Below the pieces are notes generated by a model, which was not told the DNA's origin, made no database searches, and saw only the letters and a list, made by a program, of their open reading frames with translations. DNA of 64,000 bases from Escherichia phage MRostami-2023e, in sequence record OQ031495; one strand, written 5' to 3'. This document shows positions 44,895 through 51,542 of this stretch, piece by piece (the stretch's first letter is position 1; each line of letters begins with the position of its first letter). The position numbers and the translations under genes were made by a program.

Positions 44895-45530
44895 ATGAAA
44901 ACTACTCCTATTACTATCGCTATTGACGCAATCATAAAACAAGCTTCTTCTTTGGCCGCTATGGCCAAAGTAATTAGTCAAAACCCTGCTCGTTATAATG
45001 CTATTCTAGAAACTCTTCGACGCCCTGGACTTAGTAATTATGAAAGCCGAGTAATTATTACAGGTGTTGGTAAGAATGCTAATATTGCAACTAAAGCGTC
45101 TGAGACATTTGCTTCACTCGGTATCCCGAGTATGTACTTGAACACTGGGCATTATTCTCACGGTGATGCAGGATTTATTGCGCCTAATGATGTGTTGATT
45201 CATATTAGTCGTTCTGGTAAAACTGAAGAAATGATAGGCGTGGCTAAGCATCTTAAAATGATTCGCCCGAACGTCAAACAGATTCTGTTGCATTGTAACC
45301 CAGACATTCCACAAGAATACGAAGCCCTTTTTGATTACTCTTTCTGTACAGGCATCGCGGTAGAAGTTGATGAGAATTCTCTGGCTCCGACTATGTCCAC
45401 TACATTGTTGTTAGCGCTTATCGATACGTTTGCTATCAACCTTTCGTCTGAACGTGGATTTACCTCTAATGACTTCCTTAAGTTCCACCCTGGCGGTGCA
45501 CTAGGTGCCATGTTACGAGGCGAACAATGA
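44895..45530 (+). CDS. SIS-domain sugar-phosphate isomerase, arabinose-5-phosphate isomerase (KdsD/GutQ)-like, no CBS domains
   Basis: ITGVGKNANIATKASETFASLGIPSMYLNTGHYSHGDAGFIAPNDVLIHISRSGKTEE resembles the KdsD SIS core (GxGKS...HGDxG...SxSG). Confidence 0.7.
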   Translation: MKTTPITIAIDAIIKQASSLAAMAKVISQNPARYNAILETLRRPGLSNYESRVIITGVGKNANIATKASETFASLGIPSMYLNTGHYSHGDAGFIAPNDVLIHISRSGKTEEMIGVAKHLKMIRPNVKQILLHCNPDIPQEYEALFDYSFCTGIAVEVDENSLAPTMSTTLLLALIDTFAINLSSERGFTSNDFLKFHPGGALGAMLRGEQ

Positions 45531-45670
45531 AAGCAATAACAATAGGACTTTTACTATTGATGCTTGTCATGACTATCTACTGGAGCTTAACGGCTCCAGT
45601 AATGATTCCAACACTTGTAATTGGATGGATTATGATTGGACTACAAGCAAAGTATGAATGCTTTAACTAG
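45527..45670 (+). CDS. small hydrophobic membrane peptide (47 aa)
   Basis: ATGA overlap with SIS gene stop; MKAITIGLLLLMLVMTIYWSL...; below the ORF-track size cutoff. Confidence 0.35.
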   Translation: MKAITIGLLLLMLVMTIYWSLTAPVMIPTLVIGWIMIGLQAKYECFN

Positions 45671-45711
45671 AATAGTGTACAATACTCCTACTTACCAATG
45701 AGGACCACAAC

Positions 45712-47397
45712 ATGAAAAAAGCTGTTATTCTTGGTGCTGGACTGGCAACTCGTTTGTATCCAATAACGCATCATATTCCTAAGGTGCTTGTTAACTATAA
45801 ACAAGACACTATTCTGAGCAATTTGTATACAATTTATTCTGACCTTGGCGCAGATGAAATTATTGTAGTAGTTCATTCAAAATTTGCTGAAACTGTTCGA
45901 GCTTATTGTGAGCAAGAAGGGTTCAATGTGACTATTCGTACAGTTGATGAAGCGTATGGTTCTGCTTATGCTCTTGCTAAATTACACAAAGATTTAGACG
46001 GCCATAATGTAATTGTTAACTGGTGTGATATTATTCCGGATTTTGGTTCATGGTCTTGGAATGTTAACGCAATCTATGTTAAGGGTGACGAATGTCGATA
46101 TAATTTCGACGGTGAAAATATCACTAACGTAGGTTCAACAGGTGGTAATGTTGTAGGAATTTATCAGTTCAAAGACTGGGAATTCTATATGGGTTCTACC
46201 GATGAGGAAATTCATGAATACTGCAAAGGACGTGATTTCGTAGAATTCCTTTACGGCAGCGCATTCAATAAATCAGAGCTTATGAATCTAATTGATTTAG
46301 GTGATATGCCTAAACTTGAAAAAGCTCATGAAGTTCGTGAACTTAATCGTAGTTTTAATGCAGTTGAAATTGGTGAAGAAACTGTAACTAAATTCGCATT
46401 AACCGAACAGGGTCGAGCTCTTCAGAAAGATGAGATTTCATGGTATCTTAAAGTGAAATCAGATTCAGTTCCTCAGTTAGTTTCTGTTAATGAAAATAAC
46501 TTTGAAATGGAACGCATTAAAGGTAAGCCGGCATTTGAATATATTAAATCAAAATCAAGTCTTGCTCGTCCACAAATTATTGATGCAATTTTAGATGCAC
46601 TGAAATTCAGCACAGACACTTATTTTGTAAGTCCTGAAACTGTTCGCCGTGATTTCACTAAAGAATTCTATACGAAAGTTATTGATCGTTGTGAAAGTAT
46701 TCAACCATTGATTGATTCATTTGGTAAAATCACACATGTGAACTACACTAAGATTGGGCGTCTGAAGCCAATGTTGAAACAAGCTTTAGAACATCTTATT
46801 CGTTATCATAACCGTTCTCAGGGACAGTACTCTGTTATTCACGGTGACCCGAACTTCAGTAATACTATGATTACTGATAACGGCGAAGTCAAGTTTATCG
46901 ACCCTCGTGGATATTTTGGCGAAACCAAGATTTACGGGCCAAAATTGTATGATGAAGCTAAAGTGCTTTATGCTGTTTCAGGTTATGATGAATTCAATGC
47001 TAATCCGGCCTGGGGACAGTTTACTATTGATGAAACAACTTGTAATGTGACTATTAACATCAATCCATTAGTTTACAAATATGGAAAGATGAGTTCGTTT
47101 AACGAGTATCATCATTTGGCAGTGGCAATTATCTGGATTGCATTAGGTGGTTATTTCAAGAATAATCCACTTAAAGCGGTTGCCGCATATTATAAAGGTA
47201 TGGAACTTCTGACTAAGCAATTACGTAACATGGGCCGTGTACTTCAAGACGGCTCTATTAGTTATGACGTAGCAGAACCTGTAACGGCTACTCTGATTAC
47301 AAAAAATCCGGGTAAATGGGTACTAACTGATAAAGAAACTGGTGTTTCCTATCGTCCAATCGGTGGCGATATCACTCATCAATGGGAACGAATCTAA
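45712..47397 (+). CDS. bifunctional sugar-1-phosphate nucleotidylyltransferase (N-terminal) / aminoglycoside-phosphotransferase-type sugar kinase (C-terminal)
   Basis: N-terminal KKAVILGAGLATRLYPIT (GxGxRL NTP-transferase motif); C-terminal HGDPNFSNTMI...KFIDPRGYFG (APH/choline-kinase Brenner motif plus D-x-R/G). Confidence 0.7.
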   Translation: MKKAVILGAGLATRLYPITHHIPKVLVNYKQDTILSNLYTIYSDLGADEIIVVVHSKFAETVRAYCEQEGFNVTIRTVDEAYGSAYALAKLHKDLDGHNVIVNWCDIIPDFGSWSWNVNAIYVKGDECRYNFDGENITNVGSTGGNVVGIYQFKDWEFYMGSTDEEIHEYCKGRDFVEFLYGSAFNKSELMNLIDLGDMPKLEKAHEVRELNRSFNAVEIGEETVTKFALTEQGRALQKDEISWYLKVKSDSVPQLVSVNENNFEMERIKGKPAFEYIKSKSSLARPQIIDAILDALKFSTDTYFVSPETVRRDFTKEFYTKVIDRCESIQPLIDSFGKITHVNYTKIGRLKPMLKQALEHLIRYHNRSQGQYSVIHGDPNFSNTMITDNGEVKFIDPRGYFGETKIYGPKLYDEAKVLYAVSGYDEFNANPAWGQFTIDETTCNVTININPLVYKYGKMSSFNEYHHLAVAIIWIALGGYFKNNPLKAVAAYYKGMELLTKQLRNMGRVLQDGSISYDVAEPVTATLITKNPGKWVLTDKETGVSYRPIGGDITHQWERI

Positions 47398-47783
47398 TGC
47401 ACCGTGTAGAAAACATGCTTAATCTTTATTTTGATGTCGATGATTGTATAACAGAGTGGAATAACAATCGTGATTACGTGAACTTCAAGCCAGACGTCGA
47501 AATGGTGTCTGCCATTAATGCCCTGTATGATGCAGGGCATACCATAACGCTTTACACTGCTCGCGGTATGAAGTCAGTAGGTCCTGGACGTATAGCAATT
47601 GACATTCTCCCAAGTCTGATTCAGAACTTGGCAAACATTGGCTTGAAGTACCATAATTTGCTAACACATAAACCAGTATATGATTGGATTATCGACGACA
47701 AAGCTATGCGTCCTGACGAATTCAAAGCTCTTATGAATAAAGGCGAATTCGAAACATTTAAATCATATAAACCGAATCTATAA
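47397..47783 (+). CDS. HAD-superfamily phosphatase (subfamily IIIA-like)
   Basis: Motif I FDVDDCIT, motif II TITLYTAR, motif III HKP, motif IV IIDDK; TAATG coupling to upstream gene. Confidence 0.65.
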   Translation: MHRVENMLNLYFDVDDCITEWNNNRDYVNFKPDVEMVSAINALYDAGHTITLYTARGMKSVGPGRIAIDILPSLIQNLANIGLKYHNLLTHKPVYDWIIDDKAMRPDEFKALMNKGEFETFKSYKPNL

Positions 47784-47840
47784 TAATTTAAGTAAGACCT
47801 GCAAAAACCATCGCATCAATTAACGTGAGATGCAAAAAAA

Positions 47841-49001
47841 ATGAATACTTTTAAAATCGGAACGAATTTTGATTTAGCTCTTCTTGATAAAATCGTAGAG
47901 CTCAATAAAACTTATCCTAATAGCTTGATAAACGAAGTATACGGCTCTACAAGAGAAATGGCTTTTGTAGCAGCCAGACCTGATTTTAGGCTTCCTGACG
48001 TTGACAAAAAGATGTTAGAAGATTACGTTAAACGTTGTAACGAATTAGGTATTTGCTTTAACTATACACTCAACACGATAAATCCGGGTTCAAAAAGAGA
48101 ACTAGTTGAGTGGAAGAAGAAAGCTATTCAGGACTATGTTCAGTATCTTTGGTCAATAGGCGTATGGCGTATTACTATCGCTAACCCTGTTGTTATGGAA
48201 ATTGTTCGTGAAGTCAATAAAGACATTGAGATTGAAGTTTCAACAATTCTACATGTCGATGCTGTAACTCAAATCAAATACTTGCATGACCAGTATAATA
48301 TCAAAAAGGTCTGCTGTGGAATTCATAAGAACCGTTCAGTTTCTTTCCTGAAGCGTGCAGCAGAGTTTTGCAATAAGAACAATATAATATTTGAAGTTCT
48401 TGTAAATGAGTTCTGTTCTAATGCTGGTAAAGGGTATACAACACATTGTAGCTATCGTGACTCTTGCTATATTTTCCATAGTACTGATGTTACAGCTGAT
48501 GATGCTAAATCCTTAAATGGATATCCTATGCAGCACTGTATTAAAGCTCGTGATACAGACCCATTTAACTGGTTGAGAACTCGTTTTGTTCGTCCACAAG
48601 ATTTGAAACTTTATAATGATATTGGTATCACTCAATTTAAAGTTTCGGGACGTACAGGTAGCACAGACTACATTTTGAAAGTTCTTGAAGCATACGCTTC
48701 TGAAAAGTTTGAAGGTAATTTGTTAGAATTGTGGAAGCCTTTAGAGACCATTTTCACTCTTGAAAATGAGACCGAGTTTTCACATACGGTAAATATTGAA
48801 ACCTCTTTGTTAGATGGCTTTTTAGAAAAAAGGTGGTTCAGACATCCAGATTTCGATTGTGCTAATGAAATCTGCGGGACGACGTGTACATATTGTGAAA
48901 GATATTATAAACGTCAGTTATCTAAAAACGGGTTAGCAGAAAACTCTATATCTATTATTGATATAACTAACTCTGATGACGCTTTGAGGTACCCGGAATG
49001 A
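47841..49001 (+). CDS. Cys-rich protein (386 aa), possible TIM-barrel/U32-like or Fe-S enzyme
   Basis: Cys clusters KVCCGIH, EFCSNAGKGYTTHCSYRDSC and C-terminal CANEICGTTCTYC; fold assignment tentative. Confidence 0.55.
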   Translation: MNTFKIGTNFDLALLDKIVELNKTYPNSLINEVYGSTREMAFVAARPDFRLPDVDKKMLEDYVKRCNELGICFNYTLNTINPGSKRELVEWKKKAIQDYVQYLWSIGVWRITIANPVVMEIVREVNKDIEIEVSTILHVDAVTQIKYLHDQYNIKKVCCGIHKNRSVSFLKRAAEFCNKNNIIFEVLVNEFCSNAGKGYTTHCSYRDSCYIFHSTDVTADDAKSLNGYPMQHCIKARDTDPFNWLRTRFVRPQDLKLYNDIGITQFKVSGRTGSTDYILKVLEAYASEKFEGNLLELWKPLETIFTLENETEFSHTVNIETSLLDGFLEKRWFRHPDFDCANEICGTTCTYCERYYKRQLSKNGLAENSISIIDITNSDDALRYPE

Positions 49002-49237
49002 TTTCTAGAAAAACTTTTAATTATAATCTTAACGAAGAGATTTTGACTATTAAACTGAACACTAACGAACAAATTCTTAAAAAGGCCCTTATGGGCCTGT
49101 TTGAAACCAAAGCGGCTAAAGTGATTAAAGAACCTGTTCAATTGGAATACTACACTGATGCATTCCTTCATAGTGTTCTTGGAAGTATAGATTCTGAAGC
49201 TTTACGTTATATCAACATTGCCAAGAAATTCAAATAA
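48998..49237 (+). CDS. hypothetical protein (79 aa)
   Basis: ATGA-coupled. Confidence 0.45.
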   Translation: MISRKTFNYNLNEEILTIKLNTNEQILKKALMGLFETKAAKVIKEPVQLEYYTDAFLHSVLGSIDSEALRYINIAKKFK

Positions 49238-49260
49238 GCTTTATGAATTGAGTATATAAT
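49237..49260 (+). promoter_or_regulatory. middle (MotA-box-like) promoter candidate upstream of gene 42
   Basis: aaGCTTTA box, about 11-nt spacer, TATAAT. Confidence 0.4.
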
Positions 49261-49278
49261 AACTGTATTGAGGTAAAC

Positions 49279-49995
49279 ATGGGAAAACATAACACAATGA
49301 AATATATCAAAGCCGCAGATTTTCAAACCGCATTTAAAGCAGTCAATCGTGAAATTTTAGAAAACCCGGAATTCGTAACTGATTCTCGTATTGGACGTTG
49401 TAATGAAATTGGGTCTATGACAGTAGTTGTTGACACTCCATCATCATTCAAAATGACCGACCCACGTATTAACCGCATCTCTTATGAATATGCCGAAGAC
49501 TTCTGGAAGTTTATGATTTCTGGTGGTACTGATGCAGAAGAAGCGTTTAAGGCATATCCTAATGTCGCTAAATTTATTTCTAAACCTAAATCAGACGCTT
49601 TGCCTGCAAACTTCAACACTTTCTACGGTCCTCGCATTGCGGCCCAATTACCGGCTCTTCTAAAAGAACTTAAAGAGAAGCCTAACTCTCGAAGAGTTGT
49701 GTTCCAAATTCTAGAAAGTTCTGATCAGGCTTTGCTTGATTCGGACGAAACGCTTGAATATCCATGTACTGACTCAGTGACTTATTATATTCGCGATGGT
49801 AAGCTTTATACCCACTGTCATATGCGTTCTCAGAACTGTGCTGTTGTTATGCAGTTGGATTTTTATCTCCAAGGAAAATTACTTCATTATATCGCTAACG
49901 AATGTGGTGTAGAAGTTGGTGATTATACTCATACCATGGTAAGTGCCCATGTGTTTGAACGTGATTTTGATTATGTTAAAGGGTTTCTTGACTAA
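49279..49995 (+). CDS. 42: dCMP hydroxymethylase gp42 (thymidylate-synthase fold)
   Basis: Position between 43 and uvsX; YPCTDSVTYYIRDGKL and HMRSQN resemble the catalytic-Cys region of T4 gp42; start may be 49297. Confidence 0.7.
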   Translation: MGKHNTMKYIKAADFQTAFKAVNREILENPEFVTDSRIGRCNEIGSMTVVVDTPSSFKMTDPRINRISYEYAEDFWKFMISGGTDAEEAFKAYPNVAKFISKPKSDALPANFNTFYGPRIAAQLPALLKELKEKPNSRRVVFQILESSDQALLDSDETLEYPCTDSVTYYIRDGKLYTHCHMRSQNCAVVMQLDFYLQGKLLHYIANECGVEVGDYTHTMVSAHVFERDFDYVKGFLD

Positions 49996-50894
49996 TGGCT
50001 ATTTTCCGCGTACCTATTTTGAGTATGCGGTCTTATGAAACTGGACAGTATGCTATCCTTAAGGATGGCAACTTCCAACTTCATTTGCACCGTGCTAATC
50101 CAGGCGATGTGATTACATATCCACGTAATGCATCTGATATTAAAGAATGTGAACGTCTTTTCCCAGAATTTAAGTTTGTTCCATTATGGTATAAAGATAA
50201 CGCGTATAACACTCGTAAATATTTCTGGTCTGAAAATGAATTTGTGGTTGATTCATTAATTGCTTATTATGATTGTGATTTTCTAATCACAGATATCACT
50301 GGATATGATGGCGCTTTTGACGTAGAATTCAATTTCAATATCACTGCAGACCCTAATAAACCACGTTTTTATATTGACGAATTCTTAAAAACCGACATGT
50401 TGTCGGTTAATCGTTCACTTCAAACTACTGTGTTGAATGAACGTCAAAAAGAAGTGCTGGTTAACGCAGGTGCAGATGGTAATAAGATTATCGTAACGCA
50501 GAAAGTTATACGTCCTTCCGTCATGCAGCGTCTTGTAGGTGATTTGGCTCCTATTCATCTAGATGGTATTTTTCATCCATTTCGAATTAGTGACCCATGC
50601 TATCGTTTTGAACAAGTTGTTGAATGCGCAATTCAATTAGGTCAACCGCTTTATATAACTGATCCAAATAATAGTTTCGACAGAAATAAGTATCCTGAAG
50701 AAGCGCTGATTCGAATTTTTAATCCAACTAAAACTGAGTACTATCAAATTCTTAAAGGACGTCCGAAGATTCAATATTTCGAAAATCCTGAAGAAGTATT
50801 CCATCCAGGTCTTGGTGAGTTCATCTACTTTAACGCTTTAATTTCTTCGCCGTATAATATACCTAAATACGAAGATGTCGTAATCGAGGAATAA
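49995..50894 (+). CDS. hypothetical protein (299 aa) occupying the T4 beta-glucosyltransferase position
   Basis: ATGA-coupled to gene 42; no recognisable motif. Confidence 0.55.
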   Translation: MAIFRVPILSMRSYETGQYAILKDGNFQLHLHRANPGDVITYPRNASDIKECERLFPEFKFVPLWYKDNAYNTRKYFWSENEFVVDSLIAYYDCDFLITDITGYDGAFDVEFNFNITADPNKPRFYIDEFLKTDMLSVNRSLQTTVLNERQKEVLVNAGADGNKIIVTQKVIRPSVMQRLVGDLAPIHLDGIFHPFRISDPCYRFEQVVECAIQLGQPLYITDPNNSFDRNKYPEEALIRIFNPTKTEYYQILKGRPKIQYFENPEEVFHPGLGEFIYFNALISSPYNIPKYEDVVIEE

Positions 50895-50895
50895 A

Positions 50896-51444
50896 ATGGC
50901 TAAAATTATTTTAGTAGATGGCCCAGATAATGCTGGTAAAACAACTTTCATTAATGACATAATGGAAATTAGTGAAAGATATGTAAAGATTGATTTCCCT
51001 AAACGAACAGTTGATGGACGTTTCGATGTTAAGTCTCGAAATGAAGTTGGCTGTTTCGAAACGATGTTGAATTATTTAGACCCTACTAAGATTTATCTGT
51101 TAGACCGTGGATATATTAGTAACTGGGTTTATGGACGTATTCGACAAGATGCGGATTCGGTTCTTGACGTTTATGAACAGGATTATATTCGTCTTTGCCA
51201 AAACCATGATGTGTTCACAATTATTTTAACACGTAACGAAATGACTGAAAGTTTTGAAGACGACCTTATTACTTTGTCTTCATTCGGTTTTAATACAGTC
51301 ATTTCACATTTTGAAGAGTTTGCAATTCATAACAAAATCCAAACGTATCAATTACTTAATCATGATGGTGCTAACAAAGTTATAGGATTTAATGCAAGCG
51401 AACGTAATGATTTGATTACAGAAATCATCAAATGGGCTCGTTAA
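50896..51444 (+). CDS. thymidylate-kinase-like P-loop nucleotide kinase
   Basis: P-loop LVDGPDNAGKTT and LDRGYISNWVYG (Tmk-like DRY-type motif). Confidence 0.55.
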   Translation: MAKIILVDGPDNAGKTTFINDIMEISERYVKIDFPKRTVDGRFDVKSRNEVGCFETMLNYLDPTKIYLLDRGYISNWVYGRIRQDADSVLDVYEQDYIRLCQNHDVFTIILTRNEMTESFEDDLITLSSFGFNTVISHFEEFAIHNKIQTYQLLNHDGANKVIGFNASERNDLITEIIKWAR

Positions 51445-51462
51445 GAGCCATTTAAAGTTTTA

Positions 51463-51489
51463 AATGCTGTATAACCATTAGTATATAAT
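51463..51489 (+). promoter_or_regulatory. middle (MotA-box-like) promoter candidate upstream of uvsX
   Basis: aaaTGCTgTA box, 12-nt spacer, TATAAT. Confidence 0.4.
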
Positions 51490-51542
51490 CGTCTTATCTT
51501 TTAAACATGAGTAAAATATAATGATGCCTATGGAAAAATACA

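Follow-up and report, generated by a model that had tools for sequence, protein, structure and literature searches.

Which enzymes fill the place of the T4 beta-glucosyltransferase gene in a relative of phage RB69, and what do they do to its DNA? The question is raised by a 64,000-nucleotide stretch of Escherichia phage MRostami-2023e (OQ031495), the whole of which is called the window below. Between a thymidylate synthase (TS) homolog (49279-49995) and uvsX (start 51543; Pfam T4_UVSX_C, E 1e-38), its plus strand carries two open reading frames (ORFs), one of 299 amino acids (aa; 49995-50894) and one of 182 aa (50896-51444), where T4 has the gene order 42, b-gt, segA, uvsX. An original prediction for this DNA had assigned both ORFs to the T4 b-gt slot and had suggested that they encode a candidate for a novel DNA glycosyltransferase or accessory factor and a nucleotide kinase that could act on a modified dNMP or a sugar. 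The positional argument is sound and the genes are real: tblastn matches to the 299-aa protein come from 348 phage records and those to the kinase from 343, and a search of the protein collection turned up 138 homologs of the former, the lowest at 36% identity. Our reading, to which we give a probability of about 0.55, is that genes 49279-51444 form the core of an RB69-type 5-O-arabinosyl-hydroxycytosine pathway in which the sugar is transferred on DNA. Such a system is already known, and the original prediction was a correct guess about published work, in which the function of both proteins is likewise predicted. What the present analysis adds is the co-occurrence of transferase and kinase in 44 of 44 informative viral loci, the frequent overlap of their genes and, in some phages, their fusion in both orders. 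The T4 beta-glucosyltransferase slot is here filled by a transferase that sequence comparison does not recognise and by a dedicated kinase, and the chemistry to which they belong is that of a 5-hydroxy and not of a 5-hydroxymethyl base.

The acceptor base is indicated by the upstream gene (49279-49995, plus strand; Pfam Thymidylat_synt, E 2e-15), the counterpart of RB69 gp48, which had been taken for a T4-like gene 42, that is, a hydroxymethylase. It reads MRSQN (D169N), QLD (N177D) and EYPC (L143E), the signature of a 5-hydroxy-deoxycytidine monophosphate (5-hydroxy-dCMP) synthase; T4 gp42 has MRSND at the place of MRSQN. According to Lee et al. (2026, PMC13326640), these three substitutions mark 5-hydroxy-dCMP synthases, and the flavin- and O2-dependent conversion of dCMP to 5-hydroxy-dCMP is demonstrated for RB69 gp48. 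The window protein differs from the crystallised enzyme of phage HY126 (PDB 9iqc/9ir2) at 3 of 238 positions (~99% identity, E 5e-162). Judged by signature and near-identity, the "gene 42" of the window is a predicted 5-hydroxy-dCMP synthase and no hydroxymethylase, and the acceptor is therefore expected to be 5-hydroxycytosine (5hoC), not 5-hydroxymethylcytosine (hmC). RB69 DNA carries arabinose rather than glucosyl-hydroxymethylcytosine (Thomas et al. 2018), and Lee et al. (2026, PMC13326640) demonstrated that its modified base is 5hoC, to which one or two D-arabinofuranoses are joined by an ether bond. With 5hoC as acceptor and arabinose as sugar, the transfer assay on hmC DNA that had been recommended would be the wrong one.

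In two related loci a Flavodoxin_2 gene (NAD(P)H:flavin reductase-like) lies directly upstream of the TS-type hydroxylase (L004, 4739-5293; L005, 4715-5275), and in two others such a gene stands at the cluster edge (L003, 1-523; L012, 1-23). Such a neighbour is in keeping with the dependence on flavin that is reported for 5-hydroxy-dCMP synthases. The cluster in the window lacks a Flavodoxin_2 gene.

The 299-aa protein had been described as having no recognisable motif, which at the sequence level is true. No Pfam family matched it, its best NCBIfam match stayed at E 0.096 and 11.7 bits against a cutoff of 262, and its sole PHROG match was PHROG 3891, "unknown function" (E 1e-155). A profile search of the PDB with the family found no chain, and with 40 diverse aligned members no glycosyltransferase family, including Pfam Glycos_transf_1, was matched even at E<=1. 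There is no detectable sequence similarity to the T4 beta- or alpha-glucosyltransferase, both of which are larger (351 and 400 aa), and comparison by hhalign with the phage's own 366-aa GT4-like transferase gave a probability of 0.4%, so that the two are unrelated by sequence. Of the methods applied, structure prediction alone gave an assignment. The AlphaFold2 model, built on an alignment of 40 sequences, is confident (predicted local distance difference test, pLDDT, 94.3; predicted template modelling score, pTM, 0.89), and the predicted fold is that of a GT-B glycosyltransferase, with two Rossmann-like alpha/beta domains and an interdomain cleft. Bacterial GT-B enzymes of the GT4 type (sucrose-phosphate synthase 6kih, BshA 6n1x, PimA 2gej, WaaG 8b5s) share 7-12% identity with it, and it differs from them in having no strict EX7E motif. 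The check by fold prediction that had been proposed came out for a glycosyltransferase fold.

Statements at the level of residues, for this protein and for the kinase, rest on conservation. The family keeps P-I-x-S-M-R-S (7-13), K-D-G-N (23-26), F-x-P-F-R-[IL]-S-D (193-200), T-D-P-N (222-225), K246 and an invariant H270-P-G272 followed by [ED]275. A strict EX7E is absent from the family, whose conserved acids, [ED]263 and [ED]275, stand eleven residues apart; at the position that would complete E-x7-E the window protein has E267, where most members have K or T. The family is small, with 229 clusters (50% identity) in a set of 1.84 billion representatives, and all the genomic contexts inspected were phage-like or viral contigs. 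Taken together, the model, the synteny and this distribution point to a phage-restricted GT-B family and, in the window, to a putative base-proximal 5-hydroxycytosine arabinofuranosyltransferase. Its orthologs RB69 gp46:47, Acinetobacter phage DLP3 gp79 and Shewanella phage Thanatos TH1_063 differ from it in nothing of substance, and their function is predicted too. In RB69 the gene is recorded as two ORFs, RB69ORF047c (182 aa) and RB69ORF046c (116 aa), which by Foldseek against viral models are the two halves of the 299-aa protein, each 98% identical, whereas the window gene is intact; the split is ascribed to a sequencing error, and the putative name "arabinosyltransferase 1" is given to gp46:47 (Lee et al. 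2026, PMC13326640). The suggestion of a novel DNA glycosyltransferase therefore holds for the predicted enzyme class and not for the novelty, the 98% identical RB69 ortholog having already been given this putative name.

Several homologs (P0166, P0176, P0178, P0193, P0194, P0179, P0226, P0246) carry an extra N-terminal domain of ~185 aa that, from its motifs as judged by eye (DFDGIF...GDS...GDDxYD), looks like a KdsC-type HAD phosphatase. Such a fusion would tie the transferase physically to a sugar-phosphate phosphatase.

The 182-aa protein, the counterpart of RB69 gp45 and DLP3 gp78, carries the two motifs that had been quoted for it, LVDGPDNAGKTT at residues 6-17 and LDRGY at 69-73. It matches PHROG 761, "thymidylate kinase", and its model (pLDDT 87) has a nucleoside monophosphate kinase fold closest to thymidylate kinase (Tmk). 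Aligned by hhalign with E. coli Tmk (E 1.3e-5), its P-loop and its DR motif fall on GLEGAGKT and DRH of the E. coli enzyme; in the phage protein the residue after DR is Gly, then Tyr. In 17 kinase homologs G9-P-D11-N-A-G-K15-T16, with the P-loop Asp of the Tmk type, is invariant, as are FPKR and D70-R71. By fold, then, the modelled protein is a Tmk-fold P-loop deoxynucleotide kinase whose substrate role we infer from its setting; RB69 gp45 is listed simply as "nucleotide kinase" (Lee et al. 2026, PMC13326640), the kinase assayed in that work being the gp1-type one. Its likeness to Tmk stays below every curated Tmk threshold: with the dTMP-kinase model TIGR00041 it reaches 16.4 bits where 83.25 are required, and Pfam PF02223 gives no match for it and "faint" ones for two homologs. 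None of its arginines aligns confidently with the Arg of Tmk that contacts thymine O4. The structures of the T4 deoxynucleoside monophosphate (dNMP) kinase gp1, 1dek and 1del, are absent among its 60 best structural matches. Unlike Tmk and gp1, this kinase occurs only with the hydroxycytosine cluster.

The linkage between the two genes is tight. The tblastn counts of transferase and kinase are almost the same genus by genus (Escherichia 176/176, Acinetobacter 57/57, Shigella 15/15, Proteus 7/7). A scan of IMG/VR yielded 58 loci, among them 44 that were informative and whose transferase reached 33% identity or more; every one of these 44 has the kinase, and likewise a TS homolog of the D169N or a related type, and the kinase adjoins the transferase in 33 of them and lies apart in 11. 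In seven metagenomic contexts, among them a 355-kb jumbo-phage contig and contigs on which no T4-like DNA-replication gene occurs among the called neighbours, the kinase adjoins the transferase throughout (kinase homolog E 3e-26 to 2.5e-42) and the TS homolog always reads MRS[QN]N. The two genes overlap by 3-25 nt in six of the seven; the seventh, L006, has the reversed order and a 1-nt overlap. Some loci (L004, L005, L046-L059) lack the sugar-activation genes and retain hydroxylase, transferase and kinase, and these three are therefore the minimal module, in which the transferase would be expected to touch the base.

The two proteins are also found as natural fusions, seven in the order transferase-kinase (P0256, P0257, P0268, P0271, P0281, P0287, P0243) and one in the order kinase-transferase (P0260). 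The fused P-loop domains were missed by a narrow hidden Markov model of the kinase and were found by a broadened alignment and profile-profile comparison, which shows that they and the family of the window kinase are homologs (hhalign probability 95.9%, E 5.6e-9, 133 columns). They read GFDRIGKD[TS], with GKD rather than GKT, and TR instead of DR; with a non-canonical Walker A and TR they may not be active kinases. In both fusion contexts inspected (L013, 5412-7064; L014, 6001-7662) a gene of the U32 family is present, and a TS homolog was not found within the flanks.

Module order is permuted among genera, with kinase-TS-GT (glycosyltransferase) in Dhakavirus-type phages (L027-L031, L036) and HAD-kinase-U32-TS-GT in some Klebsiella- and Proteus-type phages (L021-L023, L041-L042). 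In the Dhakavirus-type loci both the U32 gene and the SIS isomerase are absent within 10 kb; without this isomerase, arabinose-5-phosphate may come from the host.

With this in mind, one may propose how the module works. In the first step the TS homolog would hydroxylate dCMP to 5-hydroxy-dCMP with flavin and O2, the one step for which there is direct biochemistry, on near-identical orthologs (Lee et al. 2026, PMC13326640). The Tmk-fold kinase would then convert 5-hydroxy-dCMP to the diphosphate, the host Ndk would make the triphosphate, which the phage polymerase would use instead of dCTP. For the third step, fold, synteny and distribution lead us to infer that the 299-aa GT-B protein puts the base-proximal D-arabinofuranose on the 5-OH of hydroxycytosine, with uridine diphosphate-arabinofuranose (UDP-Araf) as the donor and newly made DNA as the acceptor. 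The donor would be supplied by an isomerase, a 561-aa bifunctional enzyme and a HAD phosphatase encoded at 44895-47783, and an unrelated 366-aa GT4-like transferase, encoded next to rIIA and outside the window, would add a second arabinose. The three-gene module would thus work like the T4 trio of 42, gp1 and glucosyltransferase, with two differences: the acceptor would be 5hoC, with an ether link directly to the ring, in place of hmC, and the predicted donor is UDP-Araf in place of UDP-glucose. The product would protect the phage DNA against restriction and CRISPR systems. DNA with arabinosyl-hydroxycytosine lets a large set of T4-like therapeutic phages (Mosigvirus and at least 10 other genera) evade restriction enzymes, DNA glycosylases and some CRISPR systems.

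In favour of the third step, Thanatos is reported to be mono-arabinosylated with the 299-aa type as its only transferase (Lee et al. 2026, PMC13326640). Several observations weigh against the pathway as drawn. DLP3 gp79 alone gave no product on 5hoC DNA with UDP-Araf or with UDP-arabinopyranose (UDP-Arap), and the authors cannot place the first arabinosylation, on the mononucleotide or on DNA (Lee et al., PMC13326640). For the Thanatos homolog TH1_063 the activity reported in vitro is synthesis of UDP-xylose and not sugar transfer; it showed no transfer to DNA, dCMP, dCTP or cytosine, all of which lack a 5-OH acceptor. The RB69 gp1-type dNMP kinase phosphorylates 5-hydroxy-dCMP and is sufficient for this in E. 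coli (Lee et al. 2026, PMC13326640), and because it performs the same step the second kinase looks redundant in T4-like phages. Finally, the transferase family is acidic, with a median isoelectric point (pI) of 5.1 (the window protein has a charge of -11 and a pI of 5.05), whereas the T4 beta-glucosyltransferase is basic (pI 9.05). This last argument is suggestive at most, because the UvsX of the window is equally acidic.

The same observations lend themselves to a different order of events, which we consider rather unlikely: the 299-aa enzyme would arabinosylate free 5-hydroxy-dCMP, the kinase would be specialised for arabinosyl-5-hydroxy-dCMP, the polymerase would incorporate the glycosylated nucleotide, and later arabinoses would be added on DNA. 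The linkage of transferase and kinase, with overlapping ORFs in most contexts and fusions in both orders, is tighter than a shared pathway requires. Fusions often join consecutive steps of a pathway. To our knowledge this would be the first natural pre-replicative DNA glycosylation, and it would explain why T4-like phages retain a second nucleotide kinase besides gp1. It would also explain the inactivity of DLP3 gp79 on 5hoC DNA, and it fits the absence of bare 5hoC from virion DNA (Lee et al. 2026, PMC13326640). The acidity of the transferase family points the same way. In DNA, 5-hydroxycytosine is mutagenic and is attacked by the glycosylases Nth and Nei of the host, so that never exposing the bare base would be an advantage. 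The characterised phage DNA glycosylations are post-replicative, however, and the lack of a natural precedent that we know of speaks against this order. So does the finding of Lee et al. (PMC13326640) that in E. coli gp48 together with a gp1-type kinase puts unglycosylated 5hodC (5-hydroxy-deoxycytidine) into DNA, which makes 5hodCTP a competent precursor. Moreover, gp1 would compete with the transferase for 5-hydroxy-dCMP, the kinase stands apart from the transferase in the 11 of 44 loci mentioned, and the fused kinase domains, with GKD and TR, are maybe inactive. On balance we prefer transfer of the first arabinose to newly made DNA.

A role of the kinase as a plain additional thymidylate or dNMP kinase, which boosts the supply of dTTP or dNTPs and has no specific tie to the modification, is improbable. 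The Tmk fold and the label "thymidylate kinase" in many records would suit such a role, but the gene follows the hydroxylase/transferase cluster and not T4-like phages generally, the corresponding T4 region has no such gene, and both the low score of 16 bits against the dTMP-kinase cutoff of 83 and the missing confident counterpart of the thymine-O4-contacting Arg speak against it. We also considered a sugar as the kinase substrate, which the original prediction had offered as an option, and rejected it: the P-loop Asp is of the Tmk type, and a sugar kinase domain is already supplied by the 561-aa protein encoded upstream in the cluster.

Equally doubtful, and in our view quite improbable, is a kinase that acts on the polymer, like the 5-hydroxymethyl-deoxyuridine (5-hmdU) DNA kinases of thymidine-hypermodifying phages, or that serves the transferase as a non-catalytic or nucleotide-binding partner. 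Its fusions to the transferase occur in clusters holding a U32 enzyme, a type whose cellular representatives RlhA and TrhP have polymers as substrates, and the catalytic motifs of the fused domains are degenerate. The window kinase, on the other hand, keeps GxxxxGKT, the Tmk-type Asp and DR, all invariant in the 17 homologs, and the final modification, in the structure given by Lee et al. (PMC13326640), has no phosphate. A role of the 299-aa protein as a UDP-pentose pyrophosphorylase that makes the donor while another protein transfers the sugar is highly improbable: His-tagged TH1_063 (47.5% identical) is reported to give UDP-xylose from UTP and xylose-1-phosphate by liquid chromatography-tandem mass spectrometry, but the control described in the available part of that account is a "no enzyme" one only, so that carry-over of host GalU is possible, the predicted fold is GT-B and not that of a nucleotidyltransferase, the cluster already encodes an NTP-transferase domain whose HY126 ortholog has a reported pyrophosphorylase activity, and the 299-aa protein is kept in clusters without sugar-pathway genes.

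The genes that would make the donor lie upstream on the plus strand. The first (44895-45530) encodes an arabinose-5-phosphate isomerase with a SIS domain, of the RB69 gp55 type (NCBIfam KpsF/GutQ E 3e-32, KdsD E 1e-30), whose counterpart in record PQ516281 is labelled arabinose 5-phosphate isomerase and which is described as the first step of the donor pathway (Lee et al. 2026, PMC13326640). The second (45712-47397) encodes the bifunctional 561-aa protein of the HY126 AfhE or RB69 gp52:53 type, predicted to be a sugar-1-phosphate nucleotidyltransferase at its N-terminus (Pfam NTP_transferase, E 9e-10, residues 3-99) and a kinase at its C-terminus (weak APH/fructosamine-kinase matches at 350-405); it matches PHROG 4098 (E 8e-295). 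Activities of HY126 AfhE, including that of a pyrophosphorylase, are on record as cited second-hand by Lee et al. (PMC13326640), and production of UDP-Araf is reported in this way for the HY126 ortholog. The third gene (47382-47783) encodes a HAD-family phosphatase of the AfhF or RB69 gp51 type (NCBIfam TIGR01689, capsule biosynthesis phosphatase, E 7e-13; PHROG 1238), and AfhF-type enzymes are described as converting Araf-1,5-bisphosphate to Araf-1-phosphate (Lee et al. 2026, PMC13326640).

A second arabinosyltransferase of the RB69 gp3 type was looked for in the window and is absent from it. In the record of Escherichia phage vB_EQ1, which is 100% identical to the window over region 45700-51500 (5.8 kb queried), the gene of this 366-aa protein lies past the end of the window, with rIIA.1 on one side and the gene of the topoisomerase large subunit on the other. 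Its position is L002 13442-14542 (PQ516281.1 125441-126541), and the protein is ~99% identical to 9iqz/9ir0, "phage HY126 glycosyltransferase"; in essence, then, HY126 and the window belong to one type of phage. Addition of the second arabinose is the role proposed for the RB69 gp3-type enzyme (Lee et al. 2026, PMC13326640). Beyond vB_EQ1, region 45700-51500 has ~98% identity with PhAPEC2, with JS09 and with over 150 further RB69-like phages.

The junctions within the module are close. The coupling of the 299-aa gene to the gene upstream, noted in the original prediction, is as described: the last A of the TAA stop of the TS homolog is the first base of the next ATG (TAATG). The TAA of the 299-aa gene is followed by one base and then by the ATG of the kinase, with a GAGGAA ribosome-binding site just upstream. 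A scan for promoters and terminators gave counts not above those in shuffled sequence. A small hairpin, GGCTC-GTTAA-GAGCC (51435-51449, plus strand), extends across the stop codon of the kinase gene, with A/T-rich sequence between it and uvsX; it was not among the calls of the terminator scan.

Between the HAD phosphatase and the TS homolog lie two further plus-strand genes, encoding a protein of the U32 "peptidase" family (47841-49001; Pfam Peptidase_U32, E 7e-11), the counterpart of RB69 gp50, and a basic protein of 79 aa (48998-49237). The U32 protein is 79% identical to its Thanatos-1 homolog, which makes it the most conserved cluster protein between the two phages, and a three-sequence alignment shows ten invariant Cys, including a C-terminal Cx4Cx3Cx2C. 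By hhalign it resembles E. coli RlhA, the 23S rRNA 5-hydroxycytidine synthase (E 7e-5, probability 63%, 212 columns), against a probability of 1.5% for UbiU. Related U32 genes occur at L013 10053-11153, L014 8179-9276 and L018 5962-7098. In at least six transferase clusters (L013, L014/15, L065, L067, L069, L071) the U32 gene is the sole hydroxylase candidate detected in the fetched flanks; no TS homolog was found within these flanks, some of which end at contig edges. The cellular U32 enzymes RlhA, TrhP and UbiU/V are O2-independent hydroxylases. The U32 protein may thus be a candidate for an anaerobic, O2-independent route to 5-hydroxycytosine, complementing the O2-dependent TS-type enzyme. 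In our literature search no paper was found that links U32 with the 5-hydroxycytosine pathway, and gp50 of RB69 is listed as "sugar or heterocycle reductase" by Lee et al. (2026, PMC13326640). The 79-aa protein, at the RB69 gp49 position, has a pI of 9.2 and matches PHROG 8601, "unknown function" (E 5.5e-50). It could be a U32 partner. The start of its ORF overlaps the U32 stop codon, and a short ORF, of 101 aa, follows U32 in L014/L015 as well.

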